From: Oscillospiraceae bacterium
GTDB lineage: Bacteria > Bacillota > Clostridia > Oscillospirales > Ruminococcaceae
Direction: 5' to 3'
NCBI GenBank assembly: GCA_900768245.1
Contig: CAAGCE010000241.1
Location: 7,187-71,186 of the forward strand
DNA length: 64,000 bases
Position 1 is the stretch's first letter, and each line of letters opens with the position of its first letter. Position numbers and translations under genes: made by a program. Below are positions 1,716 to 15,028 of the stretch, one piece after another. The notes beneath the pieces were generated by a model. It made no database searches, was not told the DNA's origin, and worked only from the letters and a program-made list of their open reading frames with translations.

Positions 1716-3053
1716 ATGAAGGATCTGACAGTCGGCAAACCCGGAAAACTTATTCTTGCCTTTGCGCTGCCGATAGCTTTGGGAAATATATTTCAGCTCT
1801 GTTACAGCTTTGCGGACGTCTGGATAGTCGGACGTACACTTGGAAACAATGCACTTGCCGCAGTAGGTTCGACCAGTACATTAAATGACCTTATAGTAGG
1901 TTTTCTGCTTGGACTGACGAACGGCTTTGCAGTAATAACGGCGCAGAATTTCGGTGCAAAAAATGAAAGCGGTATGAGAAAATCAGTCGCTCATTCAATA
2001 GGACTTGGGTTTATTATTTCGATAGTTCTTACTTTTTTCAGTGTTGCATTCCTTACCCCCATACTTAACCTGCTCAATATACCTGAGGAGCATTTTGTGA
2101 ATGCCTATGCTTATGCAAGGGTCATTCTTCTCGGTATGACAGCGTCGATGGTATATAATATATGTGCAAGCATCCTCCGTGCAATAGGCGATACGGTCAC
2201 ACCGCTGATATTCCTTATAATTTCAGCAGTTATGAATGTGATCCTTGATTTTGTGCTTATTGCAAATGTCGGAATGGGTGTAGAGGGCGCAGCCTATGCA
2301 ACGGTCATTTCGCAGATAGCGTCAGCGGTGCTTTGTGTGATCTATATGTATATAAAATATCCTGTGCTGCATCTTAAAGGCGAGGATTTTAAACCGTCAA
2401 AGGAAATGATAGGTCATCTTATGAGCTGCGGAATGTCAATGGGACTTATGAACAGCCTTGTTGCATTCGGAACAGTTGCGCTCCAGAGTTCAATAAATAC
2501 ATTCGGCACAAATATCATAGTTGCACATACCGCAGCAAGAAAGCTGACAAGCTTCTTTATGATGCCTTTCGGTGTTCTTGGAATGACAATGGCAGCCTAC
2601 TGCGCACAGAATTACGGTGCTGAAAAATACAGCAGAATACGTCAGGGTGTGTTCAGATCTGTTTTTTACGCTTGGATATGGTGTGCATTTCTTATTGTGC
2701 TGATATATACCTGTGCGCCTGCAATGCTCCGTGCCATAACATCAACAGATGTTGCGGAAATAATAGATACAGCAGCACTTTACCTCAGAATAAACTGTGT
2801 ACTTTATTTTGTAACAGCGGTAATATCCATTTTCAGAAATGCTCTGCAGGGCGTCGGCGAACATCGTACACCTATTATTTCAAGCGGAATAGAGCTTGCG
2901 GGAAAGGTAGCCGTTGTAATGTTCCTTGCACCGAGGATAGGATATATGGGAATAATCCTTTCCGAGCCGATAGTATGGGTGCTTATGGTAATACCTCTTA
3001 TTATCAAGCTTTTGTCCCACCCGGCAATGAAAAAAACAGAAGGTCAGGTATAA
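1716..3053 (+). CDS. MATE family multidrug/oligosaccharidyl-lipid efflux transporter
   Basis: 12-TM protein with N-terminal KxGKLILAFALPIALGNIFQ... pattern typical of MATE; ATG at 1716 has aaggtgg RBS 8 nt upstream (the track's 1704 start is a GTG inside the RBS). Confidence 0.85.
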   Translation: MKDLTVGKPGKLILAFALPIALGNIFQLCYSFADVWIVGRTLGNNALAAVGSTSTLNDLIVGFLLGLTNGFAVITAQNFGAKNESGMRKSVAHSIGLGFIISIVLTFFSVAFLTPILNLLNIPEEHFVNAYAYARVILLGMTASMVYNICASILRAIGDTVTPLIFLIISAVMNVILDFVLIANVGMGVEGAAYATVISQIASAVLCVIYMYIKYPVLHLKGEDFKPSKEMIGHLMSCGMSMGLMNSLVAFGTVALQSSINTFGTNIIVAHTAARKLTSFFMMPFGVLGMTMAAYCAQNYGAEKYSRIRQGVFRSVFYAWIWCAFLIVLIYTCAPAMLRAITSTDVAEIIDTAALYLRINCVLYFVTAVISIFRNALQGVGEHRTPIISSGIELAGKVAVVMFLAPRIGYMGIILSEPIVWVLMVIPLIIKLLSHPAMKKTEGQV

Positions 3054-3079
3054 AGAGTTAGTTTTATGCATAAAAATAC

Positions 3080-3108
3080 TTGACAAGCTGTTTAGCGTAT
3101 GCTATAAT
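3080..3108 (+). promoter_or_regulatory. Sigma-A promoter TTGACA-17-TATAAT driving Mn riboswitch/mntP
   Basis: Perfect -35 (3080-3085) and -10 (3103-3108) consensus hexamers with 17-nt spacer. Confidence 0.65.
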
Positions 3109-3111
3109 CAT

Positions 3112-3250
3112 AAAACAATGTTTGGTTCATAAGGGAGTAGTCGGCGCAGACCTTTCTGTGCGGCAAGTCAACATACTGACAAAAAAGTCTGGCTTGCCTT
3201 AATTGACGAGACTTATGTATAGCAATGGCTGTACATAGGCTCCTTTTTAA
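3112..3250 (+). promoter_or_regulatory. yybP-ykoY (Mn2+) riboswitch with terminator expression platform
   Basis: Conserved blocks aAGGGAGUAGuCGG, CAACAUACUGAC and UUGACGAGAcuuaug; followed by hairpin cuuaugua/uacauagg plus cuccUUUUU; sits directly upstream of an MntP gene. Confidence 0.7.
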
Positions 3251-3328
3251 GATCGTGTATGCTTATGTACTGCTTGCAGCGCATAAGCATTTTTTATGTC
3301 TGCAAATAATTGGGAGGATGGACTTAAT

Positions 3329-3907
3329 ATGGGATTTATTGAATTGTTTCTTATCGGCGTCGGACTTTCTATGGATGCATTTGCGGTTTCAGTCTGTAAG
3401 GGGCTGAATATGCGTGGAAAGGTAAACTATAAGCAGGGTGCGGTGATAGCGTTTTTCTTTGGTGCATTTCAGGCAATAATGCCGCTTATAGGTTATCTGC
3501 TCGGTACAGGCTTTGAAAAGTATATCACAAGCATCGACCATTGGATAGCATTTATTCTTCTTGGATTTATCGGCGGAAAAATGGCAATAGAGTCATTTAA
3601 AAAGGACGATGACGAAAAGCCTGAGGGATCGGATAAACTTGATATAAAGGAACTGTTTATGCTTGCCGTTGCAACCAGCATTGACGCACTTGCGGTAGGT
3701 ATCACATTTGCATTCCTTCAGGTAAATATCTGGAGTGCGATCGGAATAATCGGAACAACAACATTTATACTGTCGCTTGTCGGCGTTGTTATCGGCAATA
3801 AATTCGGAAGCAAGTATAAAAGTAAGGCTGAGCTTGCGGGAGGTATCATTCTTGTACTTATCGGCGTAAAAATTCTTCTTGAACATCTTGGCATAATAAA
3901 TTTCTGA
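3329..3907 (+). CDS. mntP: Manganese efflux pump MntP
   Basis: [21 protein letters not shown]... two-repeat MntP/YebN architecture; gggagga RBS 10 nt upstream of ATG at 3329. Confidence 0.85.
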
Positions 3908-3927
3908 TAAAGCATATATTTTTTGAA

Positions 3928-3962
3928 CAGGCTGCCGCTGCATTGGCGATAGCCTGTTTTTT
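3928..3962 (+). terminator. Rho-independent terminator of mntP (caggct...agcctg + TTTTTT)
   Basis: GC-rich hairpin followed by 6 T. Confidence 0.65.
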
Positions 3963-3990
3963 GTGCGTTGGATTTTGTTTTTGCTTTGTT

Positions 3991-4056
3991 TATTTTTATT
4001 TTTTGGCGGCGGCATTGGGTACGCTGTGAACTGTAAGTTGTCCTGCCGCCGCGGTC
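3991..4056 (+). repeat. Solo copy of palindromic intergenic element family: T-tract + GGCGGCGGCATT - 28 nt - GCCGCCGCGGTC
   Basis: Conserved 12-mers at 4005-4016 and 4045-4056 are shared with two further copies at 16515-16566 (+) and 16612-16663 (-); the spacer is exactly 28 nt in all three. Confidence 0.55.
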
Positions 4057-4202
4057 CGGGCAAGTCAGTACCCAAACTAAAAAACAAGATACTGCCGCCA
4101 AATATATCTTTTATTTATTTAAGATGAATTTCAGAAAAGTGTTTTATTATATGTTCAATGAAAGTTAAATCCGATTAAAATCCGTGAAAGGAACGATGAT
4201 AA

Positions 4203-4949
4203 ATGGCTGAGCTTACATTTAAAAGATATGAGAAAAAATATCTTCTTAACGATGAGCAGTATAAAATGCTCCGTGAAAAAACAGCAGACTTTATGACCGT
4301 GGATAAATACGGTGAACACACCATATGCAATATTTATTATGACACGGAAGACGATGAGCTTATCAGAGCATCAATTGAAAAGCCCAAGTACAAAGAAAAG
4401 CTCAGGCTCAGAAGCTATGGAGTTCCAAAGGAAGATGATACAGTCTTTCTTGAAATAAAAAAGAAATATGACGGTATCGTTTATAAACGCCGTGAACAGA
4501 TAATCTGTTCCGATGCGGAAACACTTATACGCAATGGAAAAATGATAAAATACGACAGTCAGATATTTCGTGAGATAGAGTATTTCCTTACTGTTCATAA
4601 GGTAGTGCCTAAGCTTTATCTCGCCTATGACAGAATAGCAATGTTCGGCACAGAGCAGCCTGAGCTGCGTATTACCTTTGATAAAAACATACGAAGCCGA
4701 CGTGATGACCTTGACCTTACAGCAGGCGACAGAGGAGAAATGCTTTTTGATGATGATATGCATCTTATGGAGCTTAAAGCCCCTGGAGTAATACCTTTAC
4801 GGCTTGTAAGGATACTGTCGGAAATGGAAATATACCCTGTTTCATTTTCAAAGTACGGCAGCGTGTATAAAAAGTCATTGGAAAATCAGAAGCATATTTA
4901 CTTATTAAATTCAGAGAAAACAATATTAAACAGCGCAATTAATTATTGA
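4203..4949 (+). CDS. VTC-domain (polyphosphate polymerase / CYTH-like) protein
   Basis: N-terminal FKRYEKKYLL ExK-type motif typical of CYTH/VTC tunnel domain; 248 aa, soluble; aaaggaacg RBS. Confidence 0.65.
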   Translation: MAELTFKRYEKKYLLNDEQYKMLREKTADFMTVDKYGEHTICNIYYDTEDDELIRASIEKPKYKEKLRLRSYGVPKEDDTVFLEIKKKYDGIVYKRREQIICSDAETLIRNGKMIKYDSQIFREIEYFLTVHKVVPKLYLAYDRIAMFGTEQPELRITFDKNIRSRRDDLDLTAGDRGEMLFDDDMHLMELKAPGVIPLRLVRILSEMEIYPVSFSKYGSVYKKSLENQKHIYLLNSEKTILNSAINY

Positions 4950-4964
4950 TAATGAGATTTTTTT

Positions 4965-5636
4965 ATGTTTACAAGTATTCTTAATTCAGCAGCAGGAAGT
5001 CTTTCGGTATCCGATGCATTGATATGTACAGTAGTTTCGGCAATTATAGGTCTTGTTATTGCTGCGGTGTATCTTTACAGCGGAAAATGTACAAAAAGCT
5101 TTGCGGTGACGATAGTCCTTCTTCCGATAATTACTCAGGTGATTATTATGATGGTAAACGGCAACCTTGGTGCTGGTGTTGCGGTAATGGGTGCTTTCAG
5201 TCTTATAAGATTTCGTTCCGCACCGGGTTCTTCAAAGGAAATAGCCGTTATTTTTCTTGCAATGGCATCAGGACTTGCAACAGGTATGGGATATGTTACA
5301 TTTGCCGCATTGTTTACCGTGATAGTCTGCGGAATATTCCTTGTACTCTGCAAAACGGGCTTTGCGGAAAATACAGCAGAAAAAACGCTCCGTGTGACTA
5401 TACCCGAATCACTTGATTATACAGGTGCATTTGACGATATATTTAATAAGTATACAAAAAAGGTGTCGCTTGATAAGGTCAAAACAACAAACCTCGGCAG
5501 TATGATAGAGCTTTCATATACCATTCTGCTTGCAGATGGATCAAGGGAAAAGGATATGATAGATGAACTTCGCTGCCGAAACGGAAACCTTACAATTATC
5601 TGTGCAAGAGCAATGACAAATAACGATGCTTTGTAA
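4965..5636 (+). CDS. DUF4956-family membrane protein (multi-TM N-terminus + soluble C-terminal domain)
   Basis: Hydrophobic N-terminal half with 3-4 TM segments, then a soluble C-terminal domain; 16 nt after the VTC gene, the canonical genomic partner of DUF4956. Confidence 0.55.
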   Translation: MFTSILNSAAGSLSVSDALICTVVSAIIGLVIAAVYLYSGKCTKSFAVTIVLLPIITQVIIMMVNGNLGAGVAVMGAFSLIRFRSAPGSSKEIAVIFLAMASGLATGMGYVTFAALFTVIVCGIFLVLCKTGFAENTAEKTLRVTIPESLDYTGAFDDIFNKYTKKVSLDKVKTTNLGSMIELSYTILLADGSREKDMIDELRCRNGNLTIICARAMTNNDAL

Positions 5637-5666
5637 TAAAACTTTTTGGAAAGGAAGCAAAAGCTT

Positions 5667-7649
5667 ATGATAAATTTTAAAAAGACAGCAGCTTTTCTGA
5701 CAGCGATAATTTGTGTGATGTCAATGTGTTCCTGCGAAAAGGGGCAGACGGAAAGTGAAGAAACACAGCAGAGCAGCATAACTGTTATGACCGATGCGGA
5801 ACAGGCTAACGATAGTGATGCATCTGATAATGCTATAACAAAAGAAGATAGATATGAAGAAAAAACAGATGATTCGGATAATGAAGAAACTGCTTCTTCC
5901 GATAATTCCGATGAAGAAGTAAGTGCTGTGGAAGAAGCTTTGGTCAAAGCAGAGGAAACAACGGTAACTGCGGCTGAGCAAACCAAAAAGAATGCAGTGA
6001 TCTTTGACGGAAATAAGATAACATATTCTGGTAAAGACGCAAAAATAAACGGCAGTACGATAACCATAACATCATCGGGTACATATTATTTCAGCGGAAG
6101 TCTTTCAGACGGTCAGATAATCGTTGATTCCGACGATGACGGTACAGTAAACCTTGTGCTGAACGGAGTCGATATAACCGGCTCGAACAACGCTCCAATA
6201 TATATTGCAAATGCGGAAGAAACGGTAATTACACTTGCCGACGGCAGCAAAAATATTCTTACAGACGGTTCGACACGTTCAGATGAAGAAATAACAGGTG
6301 CATTATACAGCTCAGACGATCTCACTCTGACAGGCAGCGGCTCGCTGACCGTTACAGCAAACTATAATGACGGTATCGTATGCAAGGATACACTTAAAAT
6401 AATCAGCGGAAGCTATACGGTAAAAAGCGCAGATGACGGAATTATCGGCAAGGACTGCATTATTATAGCAGGCGGCACATTTAATATCAACGCAGAGGGC
6501 GACGGCTTCAAATCCACAAATGACTCCGATACCTCCCTCGGATATATTGCAGTTTCAGACGGTACATTCAACATTACAGCAGGTGCGGACGGTATGCAGG
6601 CTGAAACAAATATCCTTATAGAAAATGGCACATTTACAATAACAACAGACGGCGGAAGTGCAAAAGCTTCAAAGAAGAATGATTTCGGCGGCAGTTCATC
6701 ATCAGAGGATACTTCATCTGCTAAGGGTCTAAAGGCAGGCAGTACAATTACTGTCAAAAACGGCATATTTACTTTTGATACCCTTGACGATTCTGTACAT
6801 TCCGATTTCAAGGTCAATATCTCAGGCGGAACATTTAATATTTCATCCGGTGACGACGGTATCCATTCTGATGAAGTGCTTAATATAAGCGGCGGAAAAA
6901 TAACCGTATCAAATTCATATGAGGGACTTGAAGCGTCGGAGATCACAGTAAGCGGCGGCACAATAGACATAACGGCATCTGACGACGGTATCAATGCAGC
7001 GGGCAAAAATGATGTTGAATCTTTTTTTGATATAGGAAGTTCTTCAAATAACAACATTCTTACGATAAGCGGAGGAATTGTGAAAGTTGATGCCTCGGGT
7101 GACGGACTTGACGCTAATGGTTCTATATATATTACAGGCGGCGAGGTTTTCGTAAACGGTCCTGAAAATGACGGAAATGGAGCATTGGATTATAACAATA
7201 CTTTTGAAATAAGCGGCGGCATTTTAGTATGCGTAGGAAGTTCGGGAATGGCACAGTCACCGTCATCTTATTCAGAGCAGTCATTTGTTGCGACCAATAA
7301 TGTTTCAGGCTCGGCAGGCAGCGTTATAACTGTAAAGGACAGCAGCGGAAATGAGATATACAGCTATACTGCATCAAAAAAATTTGCATCAGTCGTATTT
7401 TCATCATCAAAAATAAAATCGGGAGAAAGCTATACTGTATCGGTTGACGGCAGCAATGATGTCACAGTAACAGCGGGAACAGAGCTTGGCGGCTTTGGTG
7501 GTTTTGGCGGCGGTCCAAGAGGTGATTTTGACGGTGATCCTCCGGATAATAATTTTGGCGGAAATGGTACTCCTCCCGACAACAATTTCGGCGGTAACGG
7601 AACTCCTCCTAATTTCCAAAATAAAAGAAATGACGCAGCTGTACAGTAA
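5667..7649 (+). CDS. Lipoprotein with acidic linker and Cthe_2159-like parallel beta-helix carbohydrate-binding domain, Gly-rich repeat tail
   Basis: Signal peptide with lipobox (VMSMC); D/E/S-rich low-complexity segment; then ~20-25 aa periodic repeats (TLTGSGSLTV, ITAGADGMQA, ISGGTFNI, ISGGKITV...) typical of Cthe_2159 / right-handed beta-helix family; C-terminal GGFGGFGGG and duplicated DNNFGGNGTPP. Confidence 0.6.
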   Translation: MINFKKTAAFLTAIICVMSMCSCEKGQTESEETQQSSITVMTDAEQANDSDASDNAITKEDRYEEKTDDSDNEETASSDNSDEEVSAVEEALVKAEETTVTAAEQTKKNAVIFDGNKITYSGKDAKINGSTITITSSGTYYFSGSLSDGQIIVDSDDDGTVNLVLNGVDITGSNNAPIYIANAEETVITLADGSKNILTDGSTRSDEEITGALYSSDDLTLTGSGSLTVTANYNDGIVCKDTLKIISGSYTVKSADDGIIGKDCIIIAGGTFNINAEGDGFKSTNDSDTSLGYIAVSDGTFNITAGADGMQAETNILIENGTFTITTDGGSAKASKKNDFGGSSSSEDTSSAKGLKAGSTITVKNGIFTFDTLDDSVHSDFKVNISGGTFNISSGDDGIHSDEVLNISGGKITVSNSYEGLEASEITVSGGTIDITASDDGINAAGKNDVESFFDIGSSSNNNILTISGGIVKVDASGDGLDANGSIYITGGEVFVNGPENDGNGALDYNNTFEISGGILVCVGSSGMAQSPSSYSEQSFVATNNVSGSAGSVITVKDSSGNEIYSYTASKKFASVVFSSSKIKSGESYTVSVDGSNDVTVTAGTELGGFGGFGGGPRGDFDGDPPDNNFGGNGTPPDNNFGGNGTPPNFQNKRNDAAVQ

Positions 7650-7663
7650 TAAATAAATCATAA

Positions 7664-7708
7664 GGCAATATCTGCACGATATATGTGCGGTACTGCCTTT
7701 ATTTTTTT
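7664..7708 (+). terminator. Imperfect hairpin + T-rich tract after beta-helix lipoprotein gene
   Basis: ggcaatatctgcac...gtgcggtactgcc followed by tttatttttttt. Confidence 0.45.
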
Positions 7709-7787
7709 GCAAGCATTTAAATGACAAAATATACCATATGATAGGTGCTACAATAAGCACAAATAAAAAAGAGGAGAGGATATAAAA

Positions 7788-8093
7788 ATGCCCGTTATCA
7801 TTGATACGGATAACAATACCGTTGTTGCACATCTTCAGGGAGAAATAGATCATCATATTGCGCCTGAGCTGCGTAAAGACATTGACCTTGCAATAGACAG
7901 ATACCGTCCCGAGATACTTGTTCTGGATTTTGATGAGGTAACGTTTATGGACAGCTCAGGCATAGGTCTTGTTATGGGCAGATATAAAGCTGTTAAAGCG
8001 TTTGGCGGACGTGTCGAAGTAAAGAATACTTCCTCTCAGCTGAAAAAAGTTATGAAGCTTGCAGGTCTGGACAGGCTTGCTTCAATAGAATAG
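7788..8093 (+). CDS. spoIIAA: Anti-sigma F factor antagonist SpoIIAA (STAS domain)
   Basis: 101 aa STAS protein with phosphorylatable Ser in FMDSSGIG context; first gene of spoIIA operon; strong gaggagagga RBS. Confidence 0.85.
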   Translation: MPVIIDTDNNTVVAHLQGEIDHHIAPELRKDIDLAIDRYRPEILVLDFDEVTFMDSSGIGLVMGRYKAVKAFGGRVEVKNTSSQLKKVMKLAGLDRLASIE

Positions 8094-8111
8094 CAAAAGG
8101 GTGGTAATGCA

Positions 8112-8561
8112 ATGAAAATTCTCAATGAAGTTAAAATATCGTTTATGTCGGAAAGCCGTAATGAAAGCCTTGCAAGAATGTGCATCACATCATTTGTATC
8201 TCAGCTTGATCCGTCTGTAAGTGAGCTTGCGGAAATAAAAACAGCGGTTTCGGAAGCTGTGACAAATTGTGTTGTACACGGCTATCGGGGAAGAAAGGGA
8301 AAAATAGAGCTTCTTGCAAGATACAGCGATGACAACACGGTAACAATAAGAGTAACAGACCACGGCTGCGGAATAGCTGATATAGAACAGGCTATGGAAC
8401 CCCTTTATACATCTGCTCCCGAAGAGGAACGGGCAGGTCTTGGTTTTGCTGTAATGGAATCATTTATGGACAAGGTAACAGTAAAAAGCAAGGTCGGAAA
8501 GGGAACAGCTGTTACTATGAAACGAAAGCTAATATCGGAAAAGGAAACTGTACATAAGTAA
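8112..8561 (+). CDS. spoIIAB: Anti-sigma F factor / serine kinase SpoIIAB
   Basis: HATPase_c kinase (AVSEAVTNCVVHGY, DHGCGI, GLGF) between spoIIAA and a sigF-like sigma factor. Confidence 0.9.
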   Translation: MKILNEVKISFMSESRNESLARMCITSFVSQLDPSVSELAEIKTAVSEAVTNCVVHGYRGRKGKIELLARYSDDNTVTIRVTDHGCGIADIEQAMEPLYTSAPEEERAGLGFAVMESFMDKVTVKSKVGKGTAVTMKRKLISEKETVHK

Positions 8562-8581
8562 CTGAAAGGAATAGCTTTGAA

Positions 8582-9247
8582 ATGAACGGCATAAAATCCG
8601 ACCGATTTATTGAAGAAAATCTGGGGCTTGTTCACTTGTGTGCAAACCGTTTCAGAAACCGAGGGATAGAATACGATGACCTTTTCAGCGCAGGAAGCAT
8701 AGGGCTTATAAAGGCTGCCGACGGTTTTGATACCGAAAGAGGCGTAAAGTTTTCGACCTATGCAGTGCCGGTGATACTGGGAGAAATAAAACGTCTTTTC
8801 CGTGACGGCGGAGCTGTAAAGGTGAGCCGAAGCGTAAGAGAGCTTTCATTGCGGCTTATGCATATGAAAGATGATTTCAGACTTAAAAACGGACGTGATC
8901 CCACGATCAGCGAATTGTGTGAGATCTCCGGTGAAGATACAGACGATGTAATTGAAGCCTTGAATGTAAGTATGCCGCCGTTTTCACTTTCCGATTCAAG
9001 AGATGATGAAGAAGGCGGTCAGATAGATATTGCAGTTGAAGCGCCTGACAGCGAAATGACAGATATTCTTTCGCTGCGGCAGGCTTTATCAATTCTTGAT
9101 GAAAATGACAGACAGCTTCTTTATCTGCGCTACTTTAAGGATATGACACAAAGTGATGTTGCCAAACGGCTTGATATGACACAGGTGCAGGTCTCAAGAC
9201 GTGAAAAAAAGCTTTTAATGAAGCTTAGAGGCTTTTTAAGCGAATAA
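8582..9247 (+). CDS. sigF: Sporulation sigma factor SigF (sigma-70 family)
   Basis: Region 2 (YAVPVILGEIKRLFRD) and region 4 HTH (QSDVAKRLDMTQVQVSRREKK) with spoIIA operon context. Confidence 0.85.
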   Translation: MNGIKSDRFIEENLGLVHLCANRFRNRGIEYDDLFSAGSIGLIKAADGFDTERGVKFSTYAVPVILGEIKRLFRDGGAVKVSRSVRELSLRLMHMKDDFRLKNGRDPTISELCEISGEDTDDVIEALNVSMPPFSLSDSRDDEEGGQIDIAVEAPDSEMTDILSLRQALSILDENDRQLLYLRYFKDMTQSDVAKRLDMTQVQVSRREKKLLMKLRGFLSE

Positions 9248-9447: not shown

Positions 9448-9482
9448 TACAAAAATTTTAATGATAGTTGGGAGAATGGTTT

Positions 9483-10508
9483 ATGATAAATAAAAAAGCA
9501 TTTGATTTTGTAAAAGAGCTTGGCATAGGGTGGAATGTCGGTAATTCATTTGATGCCGTTAAGAAACACAGCACAGGCAATGACGGCTTAGGATCTGAAA
9601 CAGCATGGAAGAATCCGCCTGTATCAAAAGAGCTTATTGACAGCGTGTGCAAAGAAGGCTTTGATGTGATAAGAATACCTGTTACATGGTCAAATCATTT
9701 TGCTGACGATAATTGTACCATTGACAGCGAGTGGCTTGAACGTGTGGCGGAGATCGTTGACTATACCTATAATAAAGGCGTCAGGGTAATATTGAATACA
9801 CATCACGAGAACTGGATATTTATGTCTGATGAAAATTATCCAAGAGCATCAAAGGCTATGAAGCGTATATGGGAGCAGCTTTGCGAACGCTTTAAAGACT
9901 ACGGCGAAAGGCTTATTTTTGAAGGAATGAACGAGCCGAGAAAAATGGGCTGCCCCGATGAATGGAACGGCGGCGATGCGGAAGCCCGTAATGTTGTAAA
10001 TAAGCTTAATCTGGATTTTGTGGATACAGTCCGCAGCTTTGGCGGCAATAATGCCGAACGTTATCTTATGATAGCAACATACTGCGGCTGCTGCACAGAT
10101 ACTGTAATGCGTGAGCTTGAAATTCCCGATGATAATGGTATAATTGTAACAGTACATTCCTATAAGCCTTGGGGATTTGCTTGTTCTGAGCCTGACAAGC
10201 CTGATTATACTGCTGTTTTTGATATGAATGACCCTGGATTTATGGAATCTCTGGACGAAACCTTTGGCTTTATGAAAAAGTATTGCATTGATAAAAACAT
10301 TCCTGTTATAATAGGTGAGTTCGGTGCTTTAAACAAGGATAATGACAATGAAAGGTTAAAGTATATCGGCTATATGAGAAAAAAATCCGATGAAACAGGT
10401 GTAAAGCTTATATGGTGGGATAATGGCTATCCACATGATTTTGCACTTTTTGACAGAAAAAGCAGTAAGGTAATTCATCAGCAGCTTGTAGATGCCTTAA
10501 CAAAATGA
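9483..10508 (+). CDS. Glycoside hydrolase family 5 (endo-beta-1,4-glucanase/cellulase-like), no signal peptide (cytoplasmic)
   Basis: GWNVGNSFD, IRIPVTW, NTHHENW and catalytic FEGMNEPR motifs of GH5; gggaga RBS 7 nt before ATG 9483 (track ORF starts at an upstream TTG). Confidence 0.8.
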   Translation: MINKKAFDFVKELGIGWNVGNSFDAVKKHSTGNDGLGSETAWKNPPVSKELIDSVCKEGFDVIRIPVTWSNHFADDNCTIDSEWLERVAEIVDYTYNKGVRVILNTHHENWIFMSDENYPRASKAMKRIWEQLCERFKDYGERLIFEGMNEPRKMGCPDEWNGGDAEARNVVNKLNLDFVDTVRSFGGNNAERYLMIATYCGCCTDTVMRELEIPDDNGIIVTVHSYKPWGFACSEPDKPDYTAVFDMNDPGFMESLDETFGFMKKYCIDKNIPVIIGEFGALNKDNDNERLKYIGYMRKKSDETGVKLIWWDNGYPHDFALFDRKSSKVIHQQLVDALTK

Positions 10509-10583
10509 TACGGTATATCCTGCATAAAATTGAATAATACATACGCTTATAAGCGTTTTTGCGTTAAGGAAAGGAGCAGCATT

Positions 10584-11054
10584 ATGAAAATGAAAGATAC
10601 CTGTAAAAAGTTTTTGGAGCTGTTAAAGGACGATATTACGGATTCATTTTATGATGATGACGGCGGTGATTATGTAGAGCTTTATATTGAAAATCCCGAT
10701 AATGAGGATCTGAATTTGCAGATCGAAATAGACAGCGAATATTTCGGATTGTCCTATCGCAGCTATGATGAAACATACAGCTATGATGAACATTCAGAGG
10801 AAAATATCATTCTTTTAGCTGATAAAATACACAAAATAATCAGCGGTGAGCTTTGTATGATAACATTATACCGTGAAAATAGAGGCTGGAGCGTTGATAT
10901 TCTTGAAGAAACGTCAAAGGTAAATGACAGCTGTCTTGAAAAATTTGTTGCAGATGTAACGGACGACGGTGACAACGGCTATATCGAAGTTGTTATATGG
11001 GGCGAAAGTGATTATGACAGCTATGATTTTGATGATAAACAGCTTGTAAAATAG
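10584..11054 (+). CDS. Highly acidic hypothetical protein (D/E/Y-rich, ~157 aa)
   Basis: ORF with aaggaaaggag RBS before ATGaaaATG; strongly negative composition; no recognisable family. Confidence 0.45.
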   Translation: MKMKDTCKKFLELLKDDITDSFYDDDGGDYVELYIENPDNEDLNLQIEIDSEYFGLSYRSYDETYSYDEHSEENIILLADKIHKIISGELCMITLYRENRGWSVDILEETSKVNDSCLEKFVADVTDDGDNGYIEVVIWGESDYDSYDFDDKQLVK

Positions 11055-11063
11055 TTTTTTATG

Positions 11064-11097
11064 CAAAGCCGGTATGAAATTATCGGCTTTGCTTTTT
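11064..11097 (+). terminator. Rho-independent terminator (caaagccg...cggctttg + TTTTT)
   Basis: 8-bp GC-containing stem, 12-nt loop, T-run. Confidence 0.65.
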
Positions 11098-11167
11098 GTA
11101 ATAAAAGTGCATAAATATCCGAAACCTATTCAATAATATGTTTAACCTGCCAAAAGTAAAAAAAGGT

Positions 11168-11196
11168 GTTGACAAACTATGTTTACTCTGGTATAA
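11168..11196 (+). promoter_or_regulatory. Sigma-A promoter TTGACA-17-TATAAT for tRNA-Lys
   Basis: Consensus hexamers at 11168-11173 and 11191-11196. Confidence 0.6.
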
Positions 11197-11247
11197 TAAA
11201 TAAGCGTTGTGAGTACTGAGAAACAAATTTACTTAGTGTCTCGTGAC

Positions 11248-11323
11248 GAGCTATTAGCTCAGTCGGCAGAGCATTTGACTTTTAATCAAAGGGTCTGGGG
11301 TTCAAATCCCCAATAGCTCACCA
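11248..11323 (+). tRNA. tRNA-Lys (anticodon UUU), CCA encoded
   Basis: Cloverleaf folded by eye: acceptor GAGCUAU/AUAGCUC, D-arm GCUC-AGUCGGCA-GAGC, anticodon stem UUUGA/UCAAA with loop CUUUUAA, T-arm UGGGG-UUCAAAU-CCCCA, 3' ACCA. Confidence 0.9.
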
Positions 11324-11325
11324 AG

Positions 11326-11375
11326 AAAACCTCTTAAATTGCGTTTATACGTTGTTTAAGAGGTTTTTGCTTTTA
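11326..11375 (+). terminator. Terminator after tRNA-Lys (aacctcttaaa...tttaagaggtt + TTTTgcTTTT)
   Basis: 11-bp inverted repeat followed by T-rich tract. Confidence 0.6.
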
Positions 11376-11386
11376 AGGAGGTTTTT

Positions 11387-12034
11387 ATGCAGCATTTTAA
11401 GTATATATTTTTTGATTTGGACGGTACTATATTCAATTCCGAAGCAGGCATAAGTAAATCGGTAAAATATGCCCTAAGTAAGTTCGGAATAGATGAAAAT
11501 GATGAAAACAAGCTTAAAGCCTTCATAGGACCGCCGCTTAAAGATTCGTTTATGAAATATTACGGTTTTTCCGAGCAGCAGGCAAGGGACGCTATAAAAT
11601 TTTATCGTGAATATTATTCGGTCAAAGGCATTTTTGAGGGACACATATATAATAATGTTGAAAAAATACTGGCATATATTAATGAAAGGGGCAAAAAGGC
11701 TGTTCTTGCTACTTCCAAACCTAAATTTTTTGCCGAGCAGATAATTGAACACTTGGGACTTACAAAGTATTTTGATTTTATATCAGGTGCAACGCTTGAT
11801 GAAACTGTCACAGGAAAATATGAGGTCATTAAAATCGCAATTGATGAAGAAAAAATTGATGACCTGTCAAGTATTTTAATGGTAGGCGACAGACTGCACG
11901 ACGTTGAGGGTGCAAAAAAAGCAGGGATAAAGTGTGTCGGGGTTTTGTATGGCTTCGGTTCTGAATCGGAGCTTCGTGAGGCGGGTGCCGATCATATTAT
12001 TTCAGATGCGTTTGAACTTGCGGATATAATTTAG
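11387..12034 (+). CDS. HAD-IA family hydrolase (phosphatase)
   Basis: FDLDGTIFNS motif I, S/T motif II, K..GDRLHD motif III-IV; aaggagg RBS. Confidence 0.75.
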   Translation: MQHFKYIFFDLDGTIFNSEAGISKSVKYALSKFGIDENDENKLKAFIGPPLKDSFMKYYGFSEQQARDAIKFYREYYSVKGIFEGHIYNNVEKILAYINERGKKAVLATSKPKFFAEQIIEHLGLTKYFDFISGATLDETVTGKYEVIKIAIDEEKIDDLSSILMVGDRLHDVEGAKKAGIKCVGVLYGFGSESELREAGADHIISDAFELADII

Positions 12035-12693
12035 TTCAGCTTGGGATTTTTGCATTTAATATTGTATGCTGCCGAATATACCGAACATCGGTTTTTCCCA
12101 AGCTGCTTTGAATGATACAAGGCTATATCGGCATACTCATAAAGCTTCATAAAATCTCTTGAATCGGAGGGATAGCAGCTTATTCCTATGCTGCATGAAA
12201 CATTGCTGCAAATATCACCGATGCATATCTTCCTGAATGTGCAGCTTATGGTATTGGCAATTCGGATAACATCACTCAGCAGAGAATTTTTTACAAGTAT
12301 CATAAATTCATCTCCGCCCACACGTCCGATAATGTTATTGTTTTTTCCGCATATTGAGTGAAGCTTTGCCGCAAATTCACAAATAACATTATCCCCGAAA
12401 ATATGTCCGTTGTTATCATTTACGCTTTTAAAATTATCAATGTCTATTAGCATAAGTGCATGAGCACCGTTTTTTCCCTCCTTTGAAAGGTAGTCTTTTA
12501 TTTTGACTTCTGTTGCGGTTTTATGCAGAAGCTTTGTCTGGGCGTCCTGCTTTGAAACACGGGAAAGAGTTTTTACAGTTTCATTAAGCTGACCGATAAT
12601 GTCAATGAGCTGCTCTTTGTCCAGCTCATTCAGCTTTGAAGATATGGCAGTACAGTATTCAAAATCATCTGTATATATATCGTTAATGTTCAA
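12031..12693 (-). CDS. Diguanylate cyclase, stand-alone GGDEF domain with short coiled-coil N-terminus
   Basis: ALMLIDIDNFKSVNDNNGH and RVGGDEFMIL motifs; TTG start with ggggga RBS; stop overlaps the HAD gene stop on the opposite strand. Confidence 0.85.
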   Translation of the reverse strand: MNINDIYTDDFEYCTAISSKLNELDKEQLIDIIGQLNETVKTLSRVSKQDAQTKLLHKTATEVKIKDYLSKEGKNGAHALMLIDIDNFKSVNDNNGHIFGDNVICEFAAKLHSICGKNNNIIGRVGGDEFMILVKNSLLSDVIRIANTISCTFRKICIGDICSNVSCSIGISCYPSDSRDFMKLYEYADIALYHSKQLGKNRCSVYSAAYNIKCKNPKLN

Positions 12694-12717
12694 TTTTGTT
12701 TCCCCCTGTAAAAGATA

Positions 12718-12746
12718 TTGACTTTATACATTATATGCTTTATAAT
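12718..12746 (+). promoter_or_regulatory. Sigma-A promoter TTGACT-17-TATAAT for GH74-like lipoprotein gene (divergent from GGDEF gene)
   Basis: Hexamers at 12718-12723 and 12741-12746. Confidence 0.5.
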
Positions 12747-12784
12747 TGTTTGTATATAATAATATTTATTTAGGAGTAATTGAG

Positions 12785-15028
12785 ATGTTAAAAAAAATTA
12801 CATTAAAAAGGTCAATAGCTGCATTTGCTGCGGCTGCAATGTGTTTTGCAGTCCTCACAGGCTGCAATGACAAAACAAGTGAACCTGATGTGACTGACTC
12901 AGCTGTAAGCGAAAGCTCAGAAACTGCTGAAGCAGAAGCATCGGCTATGGTCAATACAGAATGGTCATACGGACAGGTAGCTATCGGCGGCGGCGGATTT
13001 GTCACAGGCGTGTACAGTACTTGCGAGGAAAACGTTTACTATGCAAAAACTGACGTAGGCGGCGCATATGTATGGTCAGAGGACGAACAGATGTGGAAGT
13101 CACTCAGCTACTGGGTCTCTGATGAAGACAAAGGACTTCTTGGAATTGACGGACTTGCTGTTGACCCTAACGACGCTTCAAAGGTGTATATGCTTGCGGG
13201 AACAGAGTATTTCAGCGGCGGCAAAACTGTTTTTCTCAAGTCAGATGATTATGGCGCAACCTTTACTCAGGTGGAGCTTACCGATATGATAAAGGTCCAC
13301 GGCAACGGTATGGGTCGTGGAAACGGTGAGCGTATCGCAGTCGACCCTAATAACGGCGATGTTATTTTTGCAGGCGGAAGAACAGGCGGTATGATAAAAA
13401 GCACAGACGGCGGTCTTACATGGACAGCTGTTGAAAGCTTCCCTGTAACCAAAACTGCAAACGCAAATGGTATCAATATAATAGTATTTGACCCATCAAG
13501 CGAAAAAGACGGAGTTTCACAGCGCATCTATGCAGCTGTTTCACAGAAAAAGACAGATGACGGCAACCTCTTTGTTTCGGAAGACGGTGGTGAAACATGG
13601 TCTGTTCTTGAAAATGCTTATAATGATGCAATGCCGCAGAGAATGAAGCTCGATTCAAACAATAATCTTTATGTTACATATGCAAATAACGAAGGACCTT
13701 GGAATGCAGCTATGGGTACTGTAATAAAGTATAATGCTGCCGATAAGTCTGCTGAAAATATTGCTCCTTCAACACAGTCATTCGGTGATATTGTAATTGA
13801 CCCGACTGATGAAAACCGTATGCTTCTCGTTACAACACAGATGTGGACAGAGCAGCCTAATGGTGCATTCGGTGATATATTCTATGTTACGACCGACGGC
13901 GGAAAGACATGGACAAATATCCTTGACAAGATGACAATGTCAACGAACGGTATGCCTTGGATAGAAGATTGTGCGATCCATTGGTGCAGCAGCCTTCTTA
14001 TCGATCCGTTTGATCCTAATGAAATAATGGTAAACTCAGGCAACGGTATCTTTGCCTGCGACAATATCTGGGACGAAAATCCTGAATTCTACTTTAATTC
14101 AAGAGGTATTGAAGAAACTGTACCTGAGGATATTGTAACAATGAAGGATTATCCTCTTATTTCAGCAGTAGGAGATTACGACGGTTTTGTTCATGAGGAT
14201 ATTTTCACTCCGGCAGAACGTTTGCAGGATAAGATAGGTTCAACAACAAGCATAGCAATTGCCGCTCAGAACAGAGATTACTGGGCAAAGGTAGGCGGAA
14301 GTGACAGCGAATTCAAGCTTACATACTCTACTGACGCAGGCAAAACATGGAACTTTATTCAGAATTCACCTGAAGCAGGCAATATACTTTACAGAGGAAA
14401 GCTTGCATTCACAGCAGACGGCTCACGTCTTATCTGGAGCTCCGAAAACGGATTGAAAACATACTATACAGAAGACTGGGGCGAAACATGGACACAGTCC
14501 ACAGGTATTGTCGGAAGCAATGTTTACCTTATCGGCGACCCTGAAAACAGCGACTATGTTTACGGCTGCGGAAACGGTGTAGTATATTTAAGCTCTGACG
14601 GAGGAAAGTCCTTTACAAGAATGGCACTTGTAAGTCCGAGCTTTGACAGACTTTGTGTTGTTCCCGGTGAAGAGGGTACATTCTATATTCCCGGCGGTGC
14701 AGGTCTTTATAAGGCAACGAACCACGGCGAAGATGTTGAGCTTGTGAAAAAAATAAAATACTGTGAAGCAGTAGGACTTGGCAAGGCTAAAAACGATGGC
14801 GACCCATACGTTATCTATGTTTACGGCACACCGACCGACACAGATGTCAAGGGCATATATATGTCAGAGGACAACGGTGAAACATGGTCAAGAGTAAATG
14901 ATGACCTTCACCGATTCGGCGGAACAGGCAACGGCGTATTTGTCAGCGGTGATATGAACGAATACGGCAGATGCTATATGAGTACAGTAGGTCTTGGAAT
15001 TATCTATTGCGACAAAAACGACAAATAA
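12785..15028 (+). CDS. BNR/Asp-box repeat lipoprotein, GH74-like (xyloglucanase/sortilin-type double beta-propeller)
   Basis: Lipoprotein signal (AVLTGC); at least 8 S/T-x-D-G-G-x-T-W/F repeats (STDGGLTWT, SEDGGETWS, TTDGGKTWT, STDAGKTWN, TEDWGETWT, SSDGGKSFT, SEDNGETWS) over ~740 aa as in GH74. Confidence 0.6.
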   Translation: MLKKITLKRSIAAFAAAAMCFAVLTGCNDKTSEPDVTDSAVSESSETAEAEASAMVNTEWSYGQVAIGGGGFVTGVYSTCEENVYYAKTDVGGAYVWSEDEQMWKSLSYWVSDEDKGLLGIDGLAVDPNDASKVYMLAGTEYFSGGKTVFLKSDDYGATFTQVELTDMIKVHGNGMGRGNGERIAVDPNNGDVIFAGGRTGGMIKSTDGGLTWTAVESFPVTKTANANGINIIVFDPSSEKDGVSQRIYAAVSQKKTDDGNLFVSEDGGETWSVLENAYNDAMPQRMKLDSNNNLYVTYANNEGPWNAAMGTVIKYNAADKSAENIAPSTQSFGDIVIDPTDENRMLLVTTQMWTEQPNGAFGDIFYVTTDGGKTWTNILDKMTMSTNGMPWIEDCAIHWCSSLLIDPFDPNEIMVNSGNGIFACDNIWDENPEFYFNSRGIEETVPEDIVTMKDYPLISAVGDYDGFVHEDIFTPAERLQDKIGSTTSIAIAAQNRDYWAKVGGSDSEFKLTYSTDAGKTWNFIQNSPEAGNILYRGKLAFTADGSRLIWSSENGLKTYYTEDWGETWTQSTGIVGSNVYLIGDPENSDYVYGCGNGVVYLSSDGGKSFTRMALVSPSFDRLCVVPGEEGTFYIPGGAGLYKATNHGEDVELVKKIKYCEAVGLGKAKNDGDPYVIYVYGTPTDTDVKGIYMSEDNGETWSRVNDDLHRFGGTGNGVFVSGDMNEYGRCYMSTVGLGIIYCDKNDK

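Follow-up and report, generated by a model that had tools for sequence, protein, structure and literature searches.

The 64,000-nucleotide (nt) stretch of an Oscillospiraceae bacterium genome analyzed here (contig CAAGCE010000241.1, positions 7,187 to 71,186; referred to below as the window) carries at 4203-7649 a three-gene operon that joins a VTC-domain protein, a DUF4956 membrane protein, and an exported protein of the Cthe_2159 family. The co-occurrence of the first two genes is near-obligate: a VTC open reading frame (ORF) lies directly upstream of DUF4956 and on the same strand in all 80 of 80 species loci, and in 74 of the 75 metagenome loci that could be evaluated VTC is followed by DUF4956. 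The best-supported reading is that the operon encodes a membrane-associated machine, in which a Vtc4-like enzyme and an obligate membrane partner serve an extracytoplasmic third component. The genes and the boundaries of the operon are as follows.

4203-4949, + strand: gene 1, a soluble 248-amino-acid (aa) VTC-domain protein, predicted to be a triphosphate tunnel enzyme and most like the catalytic domain of Vtc4.
4965-5636, + strand: gene 2, a 223-aa DUF4956 membrane protein with five predicted helices (residues 15-130) and a predicted C-terminal ACT/ferredoxin-like domain (residues 139-215).
5667-7649, + strand: gene 3, a 660-aa exported, probably lipid-anchored, very acidic Cthe_2159-family protein.
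About 3925-3965, + strand: intrinsic terminator of the upstream mntP gene, a hairpin and U-run (-19.7 kcal/mol, z = -3.1 versus shuffles), marking the 5' boundary of the operon.
About 7662-7707, + strand: intrinsic terminator ending the operon, a hairpin and U-run (-16.3 kcal/mol, z = -3.3), preceding spoIIAA at 7788.

All three ORFs, at 4203-4949 (248 aa), 4965-5636 (223 aa), and 5646/5667-7649 (667/660 aa), are on the + strand. Terminators stand on both sides, and the trio is therefore its own transcription unit, separate from spoIIAA-spoIIAB-sigF (7788-9247); together with the tight gaps and a ribosome-binding site before ATG 5667 this bears out the single operon proposed in the first-pass annotation of this DNA. 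The gaps had been given there as 16 and 30 nt. The second value stands if gene 3 starts at ATG 5667, and the first is corrected to 15 nt (4950-4964). The mechanical ORF for gene 3 begins at TTG 5646 and encodes 667 aa, but ATG 5667 is the likely start because GGAAAGGAAG is located 9 nt upstream and metagenome gene calls give a protein of 660 aa. The gene 1 protein was found identical on 24 assembled contigs, with its neighbours unchanged.

Each predicted protein was compared with Pfam using profile hidden Markov models, and the three family assignments made at first pass are supported. Gene 1 matches VTC (PF09359) with E = 2.3e-41 and 142.3 bits (cut-off 23), gene 2 matches DUF4956 (PF16316) with E = 2e-17 and 63.9 bits (cut-off 30.6), and gene 3 matches Cthe_2159 (PF14262) in two stretches with E = 1.7e-98 and 329.5 bits. 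NCBIfam has no model for any of the three.

The neighbourhood of the pair was examined in both directions. A scan of one genome per species with a DUF4956 alignment yielded the 80 species loci, which are mainly from Bacillota (Lachnospiraceae, Oscillospiraceae, Clostridia, Enterococcus, Carnobacterium, and Desulfoscipio). For the converse, VTC served as the anchor in 80 metagenome loci, of which 75 were evaluable for DUF4956 and 48 for Cthe_2159. The conserved co-occurrence expected from the first-pass annotation is thus observed from either gene, with a single exception (L114). The VTC stop overlaps the DUF4956 start in about 46 of the 80 species loci, typically by 8 or 19 nt, and the CLQAL or CLQAY C-termini that recur in VTC proteins are a consequence of this overlap, since the same nucleotides give MFTSIL, the start of DUF4956, in a different frame. 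Sixty-nine of the 80 species loci contain a Cthe_2159-family gene (directly downstream on the same strand in 46), as do 39 of the 48 evaluable metagenome loci. The occurrence of this three-family operon is far beyond chance, and the trio is found in many Firmicutes of both gut and soil. The flanking genes vary from genome to genome.

Several individual loci show other arrangements or neighbours. A two-component system adjoins the VTC-DUF4956 module in 27 loci (for example L020 8815-9489, L046, L053, and L101 3996-6106), comprising an OmpR-type response regulator of about 225 aa and a HisKA kinase of about 420 aa with an extracytoplasmic loop; no two-component system is adjacent to the module in the window. 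The annotated record of a Paenibacillus locus has the same VTC/DUF4956/Cthe_2159 trio. In Nonomuraea gerenzanensis (L100 472-9236) the order is a family 2 glycosyltransferase (GT2), a 1039-aa protein without a Pfam match, VTC with a 110-aa N-terminal extension, DUF4956, and, in the place of the third partner, CotH (Pfam E = 5.9e-30). On a Hymenobacter volaticus plasmid (L099 5796-9051), DUF4956 lies between a 364-aa protein, which precedes it and matches neither Pfam nor the VTC profile, and a TolC-like outer-membrane protein, with a two-component system and a TMEM260-like protein further upstream. In L114 (2532-9206), where VTC has no following DUF4956, a Cthe_2159-like protein is encoded upstream, and the downstream genes, judged from their translations alone, are of the teichoic-acid type (TagF-like, GT2, cytidylyltransferase, and adenosine 5'-phosphosulfate kinase).

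The gene 1 protein lacks a signal peptide and transmembrane segments, and the VTC domain, matched across residues 7-223 (profile positions 1-232 of 235), is the sole Pfam domain found in its 248 aa; there is no SPX domain. Foldseek comparison of its AlphaFold2 (AF2) model, which has a predicted local distance difference test (pLDDT) score of 87, places Vtc4 first (3g3r/3g3q, E = 3e-12 to 1.5e-11, template-modelling scores of 0.61-0.63), then Vtc3 and Vtc2, and then CYTH hydrolases and putative cyclases (2gfg, 5a60, and 3sy3, E = 4e-7 to 1e-6). In a profile search of the PDB with 26 homologues, the yeast Vtc4 catalytic domain again comes first (E = 2e-6), with Vtc2 and Vtc3 next.

Residues were mapped to Vtc4 by profile alignment to 3g3q with a chain offset of +185. 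The equivalents are R8 = R196, K12 = K200, R68/R70 = R264/R266, K86 = K281, K95 = K294, R97 = R296, Y142 = Y359, R144 = R361, and R156 = R373, and all ten of these tunnel residues are invariant across the 26 homologues. The FKRYEKKYLL motif, to which the first-pass annotation had drawn attention, is indeed present at residues 6-15 and is aligned to Vtc4 as R-x-E-K-K, with K12 at the position of K200. Hydrolytic tunnel enzymes carry a four-glutamate acidic patch where Vtc4 has basic residues, and Lys-458 of Vtc4 is catalytic (Martinez et al., PMC4641920). R8 and K95, placed through the alignment and the spacing in PMC4641920, appear to occupy acidic-patch positions and to be basic as in Vtc4, and K192, placed by motif alone, appears to be a third such residue. 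An invariant LMELK (E190, K192) fits the Glu-426 metal-ligand region of Vtc4 by motif and secondary structure, and by its position an invariant FSKYG (S216, K217), where the C-terminal helix begins, would match S457/K458; a PDB search with the C-terminal 77 residues, the part that would contain the equivalents of E426 and K458, returned no Vtc4 match. By sequence and predicted fold, then, gene 1 is a Vtc4-like tunnel enzyme, and it is probably a polymerase.

A different activity is envisaged if the operon were an outside-in signalling device, with the lipoprotein sensing an extracellular polymer or cation, DUF4956 relaying, and the tunnel enzyme making a small signal as a triphosphatase or nucleotide cyclase. 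The tunnel-enzyme superfamily takes in class IV adenylate cyclases and tripolyphosphatases (PMC4641920), and proteins of these kinds are among the weaker structural matches of gene 1; E10 is kept from the acidic patch of hydrolases and cyclases; and ACT/PII-like domains, such as that predicted in gene 2, are typical ligand sensors. In both sequence and fold, however, gene 1 clearly resembles Vtc4 more than it does cyclases or hydrolases, and three of the four acidic-patch positions appear basic. The conventional two-component systems that adjoin the module in 27 loci suggest moreover that it is regulated, rather than itself being the sensor, and we regard signalling as improbable.

DUF4956, the family of gene 2, is large, with 5,790 representative clusters at E <= 0.001 among 1.84 billion, and the PDB holds no sequence relative of gene 2. 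The AF2 model (pLDDT 75) has helices at residues 15-39, 44-64, 67-83, 90-107, and 111-130, followed by a beta-alpha-beta-beta-alpha-beta domain at 139-215 whose fold matches are MgtC C-terminal domains and ACT, PII-like, and CutA folds. The Lys and Arg residues of the membrane part are all in alternate loops (GKxxK, RFRSxPGSSKE, and after helix 5), so that by the positive-inside rule the C-terminal domain would be cytoplasmic and the N-terminus outside. The basic cytoplasmic loop RFRSxPGSSKE is invariant, and the basic residues of the C-terminal domain are conserved. Weak matches to the prokaryotic STING profile in eight of 30 homologues (best E = 0.0009; C-terminal domain, window about 5370-5570) were considered, and a STING identity was rejected as the fold search returns ACT and PII-like domains.

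The resemblance to MgtC extends to the membrane part. Pfam MgtC is matched weakly and collinearly by 21 of 30 DUF4956 homologues (residues 16-131 against profile positions 26-118), with a best E of 0.0014 and 10-16 bits, all under the cut-off of 31.4. Comparison of DUF4956 with six MgtC/YhiD proteins by hhalign gives a probability of 14% over 40 columns, spanning helices 4-5 only (AMAVGLATGMGY versus TAAIGLAIGxGLY), and with E. coli YhiD alone no signal is seen. A Gly-rich helix motif, AxGLAxGxGY, is at the matching position in both families, but the MgtC signature G-x-ER...AGLRTH, which follows the first helix and is invariant in the MgtC alignment, is not in the DUF4956 alignment. Judged from the model and these profiles, gene 2 resembles MgtC in architecture, with homology unproven.

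This resemblance speaks for a purely cytoplasmic role, as a membrane-tethered module of polyphosphate or phosphate homeostasis. Polyphosphate would be made or turned over inside the cell, DUF4956 would be an MgtC-like ligand-sensing regulator and no conduit, and the lipoprotein would be co-regulated and biochemically separate. Bacteria normally hold polyphosphate in the cytoplasm, and a strain without the beta-helix exists (described below). The authors of a 2025 study of Streptococcus intermedius also interpret its DUF4956 homologue as combining an MgtC membrane domain with an ACT domain, and link it to phosphate metabolism (PMC12345266). Apart from the low hhalign probability and sub-threshold Pfam scores, which leave MgtC homology unproven, the difficulty for this reading is that the third partner is consistently extracytoplasmic, either a beta-helix lipoprotein (69/80) or a secreted CotH, and this would be difficult to account for if nothing crossed the membrane. 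We consider a cytoplasmic module unlikely.

The third gene encodes a protein with the following features, in addition to a sandwich-like C-terminal region that lies between the beta-helix and a Gly-rich tail.

5667-5735, + strand: signal peptide with a degenerate lipobox (MINFKKTAAFLTAIICVMSMCSC), read from the sequence.
5736-5996, + strand: D/E/S/T-rich acidic linker between the lipid anchor and the beta-helix, with a net charge of -20 over 87 residues.
6051-6860, + strand: best Cthe_2159 parallel beta-helix stretch (Pfam, residues 136-405 of the 667-aa ORF), with a weaker second stretch after it.
7538-7609, + strand: 33-nt tandem duplication encoding PPDNNFGGNGT twice in the Gly-rich tail (Tandem Repeats Finder: period 33, 2.2 copies, 82% matches).

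Both the long linker and the duplicated tail had been picked out at first pass, and both are confirmed. Over 225 residues gene 3 can be aligned with the solved Cthe_2159 beta-helix (PDB 4peu, E = 1.2e-38). Its lipobox, VMSMCSC, is atypical; at least 54 of the 69 Cthe_2159 homologues adjoining VTC-DUF4956 pairs have a canonical L-x-G/A-C lipobox (LTGC, LSGC, LAGC, etc.). The protein has an isoelectric point (pI) of 4.05 and a net charge of -64, and all 67 of the measured homologues (loci L008-L087) are similarly very acidic, with pI values of 4.05-4.67 and a median net charge of -49. Gly/Met/Pro-rich low-complexity tails, GGMGGG repeats among them, are found at the C-termini of many homologues. 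A strain of the same species (L001 11465-11965) has an in-frame deletion of 1482 nt in gene 3, corresponding to window 6014-7496; the whole beta-helix and the sandwich region are gone, and the signal and lipobox, the acidic linker, and the Gly-rich tail are kept in a protein of 166 aa.

The Cthe_2159 family is reported to bind cellulose or polygalacturonate; the first-pass annotation speaks of polyanionic polysaccharides. The carbohydrate-binding annotation of the family in Pfam and its solved beta-helix structure are consistent with a further reading, in which the operon is an accessory to a surface polysaccharide or matrix. Glycan at the cell surface would be bound, modified, or trimmed by the extracytoplasmic partner, which here would be a lyase-like, carbohydrate-binding beta-helix and in some lineages a CotH kinase, with phosphate, energy, or a regulatory signal supplied by the VTC-DUF4956 pair; polyphosphate need not be the final product.

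The literature on CotH-associated loci bears on this directly. In Gram-positive bacteria cotH, a 'polyphosphate polymerase' gene (VTC), DUF4956, and DUF4832 are accessory genes contiguous with pel operons (Whitfield et al., 10.1101/768473). The NELoc-2 locus of Clostridium perfringens joins VTC-domain genes with genes for 226-aa membrane proteins, CotH, and a chitin-synthase-like glycosyltransferase (Lepp et al., PMC2879425), and we infer that the membrane proteins are DUF4956. Loss of the DUF4956 and CotH homologues of S. intermedius reduced aggregation in artificial sputum by over 50% and altered Pel levels, with the mechanism left open by that study (PMC12345266). A GT2 gene is also upstream in the Nonomuraea locus. 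There are, on the other side, no adjacent glycosyltransferase or exopolysaccharide genes in the window or in most of the 80 loci, the flanks vary, and no mechanism connects a tunnel enzyme with glycan modification; a glycan accessory seems to us distinctly unlikely.

These reports also show that the VTC-DUF4956 core with CotH is already known from pel loci: the pairing has not gone unnoticed and has been described and in part mutated (10.1101/768473, PMC12345266). Its statement that CotH can replace the third partner is in agreement with the Nonomuraea locus and with reports of CotH with the VTC pair in Streptococcus, Clostridia, and Bifidobacterium (10.1101/768473, PMC2879425, PMC12345266). 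The authors of the S. intermedius study reported their own three-gene arrangement from pel loci only (PMC12345266); the VTC-DUF4956 core is much more widespread than this, as the species and metagenome loci demonstrate. The literature searched contains no mention of Cthe_2159 together with VTC/DUF4956, and no description of the stand-alone VTC-DUF4956-Cthe_2159 operon or of its breadth across species. A VTC protein of Clostridium thermocellum, Clo1313_1989, is reported as mutated in some ethanol-adapted lineages.

A small number of proteins contain both VTC and DUF4956, and were recovered with a concatenated query; at least two lineages have ORFs fused in frame. P0241 and P0244 are genuine cases, whose VTC reading frame continues past a retained internal ribosome-binding site into the DUF4956 ATG, and P0244 is followed by a Cthe_2159 gene. 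P0249, seen in three independent samples (L102-L104 3167-7900), is VTC joined to DUF4956 without its first helix; its locus has a split histidine kinase, a regulator of only 59 aa, and a Cthe_2159 gene of variable length, which suggests that it is decaying. Four other candidates were rejected: P0250 (L090 223-1614) contains an in-frame TGA translated as Trp and is two genes with the standard bacterial code, and P0245, P0247, and P0251 have out-of-frame segments. As far as sequence can tell, the fusions are compatible with a close physical relation of VTC and DUF4956.

Returning to the membrane-associated machine, the form that we tentatively prefer is one that exports polyphosphate, with a polymerase, DUF4956, and a surface lipoprotein as its parts; it is favoured because it is the most economical link between a cytoplasmic polymerase and a surface protein, and we put it forward as a possibility more than as an expectation. 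Gene 1 would be a cytoplasmic Vtc4-like tunnel enzyme that builds polyphosphate from the gamma-phosphate of ATP. Gene 2 would use its conserved basic loop and ACT-like domain to hold this enzyme against the cytoplasmic side of the membrane, and would conduct or control passage of the product. Gene 3 would be an acidic beta-helix lipoprotein on the outer face whose action, on the exported product or together with it, would most plausibly run through bridging divalent cations or involve a surface polysaccharide. The families, the limits of the operon, the Vtc4-like fold, the tunnel residues, the tight pairing with overlapping genes, and the lipoprotein signals of the third partner are observed; that the enzyme polymerises, that VTC and DUF4956 bind one another, that a product leaves the cell, and what the lipoprotein does are inferred.

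Several points weigh against this proposal, beginning with the enzyme. E10 is invariant in the homologues, at a position where Vtc4 has T198 and hydrolases have Glu; with this residue of the acidic patch retained, polymerase activity is likely but not certain, and hydrolase chemistry is still conceivable. The first-pass annotation had cast DUF4956 as the counterpart of the VTC membrane channel, and this is not sustained as a relationship of descent: the fold search with the gene 2 model gave no match to yeast VTC chains or channel subunits, with the MgtC and ACT-like resemblance in their place. The helices of DUF4956 have no basic residues inside, and proteins of the MgtC type are not known to be channels. 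Full-length fusions conflict with the N-out topology predicted by the positive-inside rule; being rare and ambiguous, the fusions are given little weight. The beta-helix had been proposed to capture a polyanion, and the strong acidity of these lipoproteins makes direct capture unlikely unless divalent cations bridge the two. The natural deletion of the beta-helix in one strain indicates that the third protein may be dispensable. As the first-pass annotation had supposed, no biochemical function for a bacterial VTC or DUF4956 protein was found in the literature searched, and deletion of VTC in S. intermedius gave no clear aggregation phenotype (PMC12345266).

The remaining features of the region concern the genes on either side of the operon. 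No Rfam element was identified upstream of gene 1 in a search of 2900-8000, and a promoter scan of 3965-4200 gave no convincing sigma-70 site, matches being no commoner than in shuffled sequence. The mntP-like gene upstream (3296-3907) is preceded by a sigma-70 consensus promoter with 12/12 matches at 3080-3108 and by a sub-threshold match to the manganese riboswitch at 3115-3291 (18 bits versus a gathering score of 45). Downstream, 7788-9247 contains the spoIIAA-spoIIAB-sigF-like genes (STAS, anti-sigma kinase, and sigma-70 family), and 9468-15028 a gene of the glycoside hydrolase family 5 cellulase type, a GGDEF protein, and a BNR/sortilin-type repeat protein. The host is a spore-forming, plant-fibre-degrading Firmicute known from metagenome assemblies. 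A phage origin was also checked, and viral contigs contain no VTC relatives.

Bacterial polyphosphate is regarded as a product of the polyphosphate kinases PPK1 and PPK2 only, and as staying in the cytoplasm. If the interpretation above is true, a Vtc4-like enzyme locked to membrane and surface partners would be a second bacterial route of polyphosphate synthesis and possibly a route of export, the latter with a bearing on biofilm matrix chemistry, cation handling, and interactions between gut Firmicutes and their hosts. DUF4956, with its thousands of members, would gain a function, and the roles of MgtC-type membrane domains could be informed by it. The more general proposal, that many Firmicutes and some Actinomycetota possess a PPK-independent polyphosphate synthase-exporter, with a Vtc4-like polymerase on an MgtC-like protein and an acidic, cation-loaded beta-helix or CotH using the product at the surface, is in our estimation doubtful; such a synthase-exporter would parallel the eukaryotic VTC complex in bacteria, with a membrane module unrelated to the eukaryotic one. 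Even if export is wrong, the pairing stays tight (80/80 and 74/75) and the system is small and well defined.

Comparison with known systems places the operon near five of these. With the yeast VTC complex (Vtc4 with Vtc1/2/3/5) it shares the Pfam family of gene 1, a model closest to the Vtc4 tunnel domain, most of the tunnel residues including the K200 equivalent, and an enzyme that is invariably coupled to a membrane protein. It differs in lacking an SPX domain and, within the enzyme and among its other subunits alike, a DUF202-type three-helix membrane domain; its membrane partner is instead DUF4956, without a fold match to the VTC membrane chains, E10 is in place of T198 of Vtc4, and the target would be the cell exterior rather than the vacuole.

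The pel loci (S. intermedius SIR_1594-SIR_1591) likewise have a VTC and DUF4956 pair with an extracytoplasmic third partner, which is CotH there and a Cthe_2159 beta-helix lipoprotein here; unlike them, the operon described here has no adjacent pel or exopolysaccharide genes and is a stand-alone unit found in varied genomic contexts. With MgtC/SapB/YhiD proteins, DUF4956 has in common a membrane domain of several helices followed by a cytoplasmic beta-alpha-beta-beta-alpha-beta (ACT-like) domain, but it lacks G-x-ER...AGLRTH and its profile match is under the Pfam cut-off; we know of no MgtC that is paired with a tunnel enzyme. Gene 3 belongs to the same beta-helix family as Cthe_2159 of C. 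thermocellum (4peu/4phb), to whose 4peu fragment the proteins of the fetched loci are at best 46% identical. It is, however, twice as long, and adds a lipoprotein signal, the acidic linker, a second helix stretch, the C-terminal sandwich-like region, and the Gly-rich tail. PPK1 and PPK2 are reversible kinases that act in the cytoplasm. The operon would share with them its product, polyphosphate made from a nucleoside triphosphate, but fold and mechanism are unrelated, gene 1 being a tunnel-type enzyme tied to a membrane partner.

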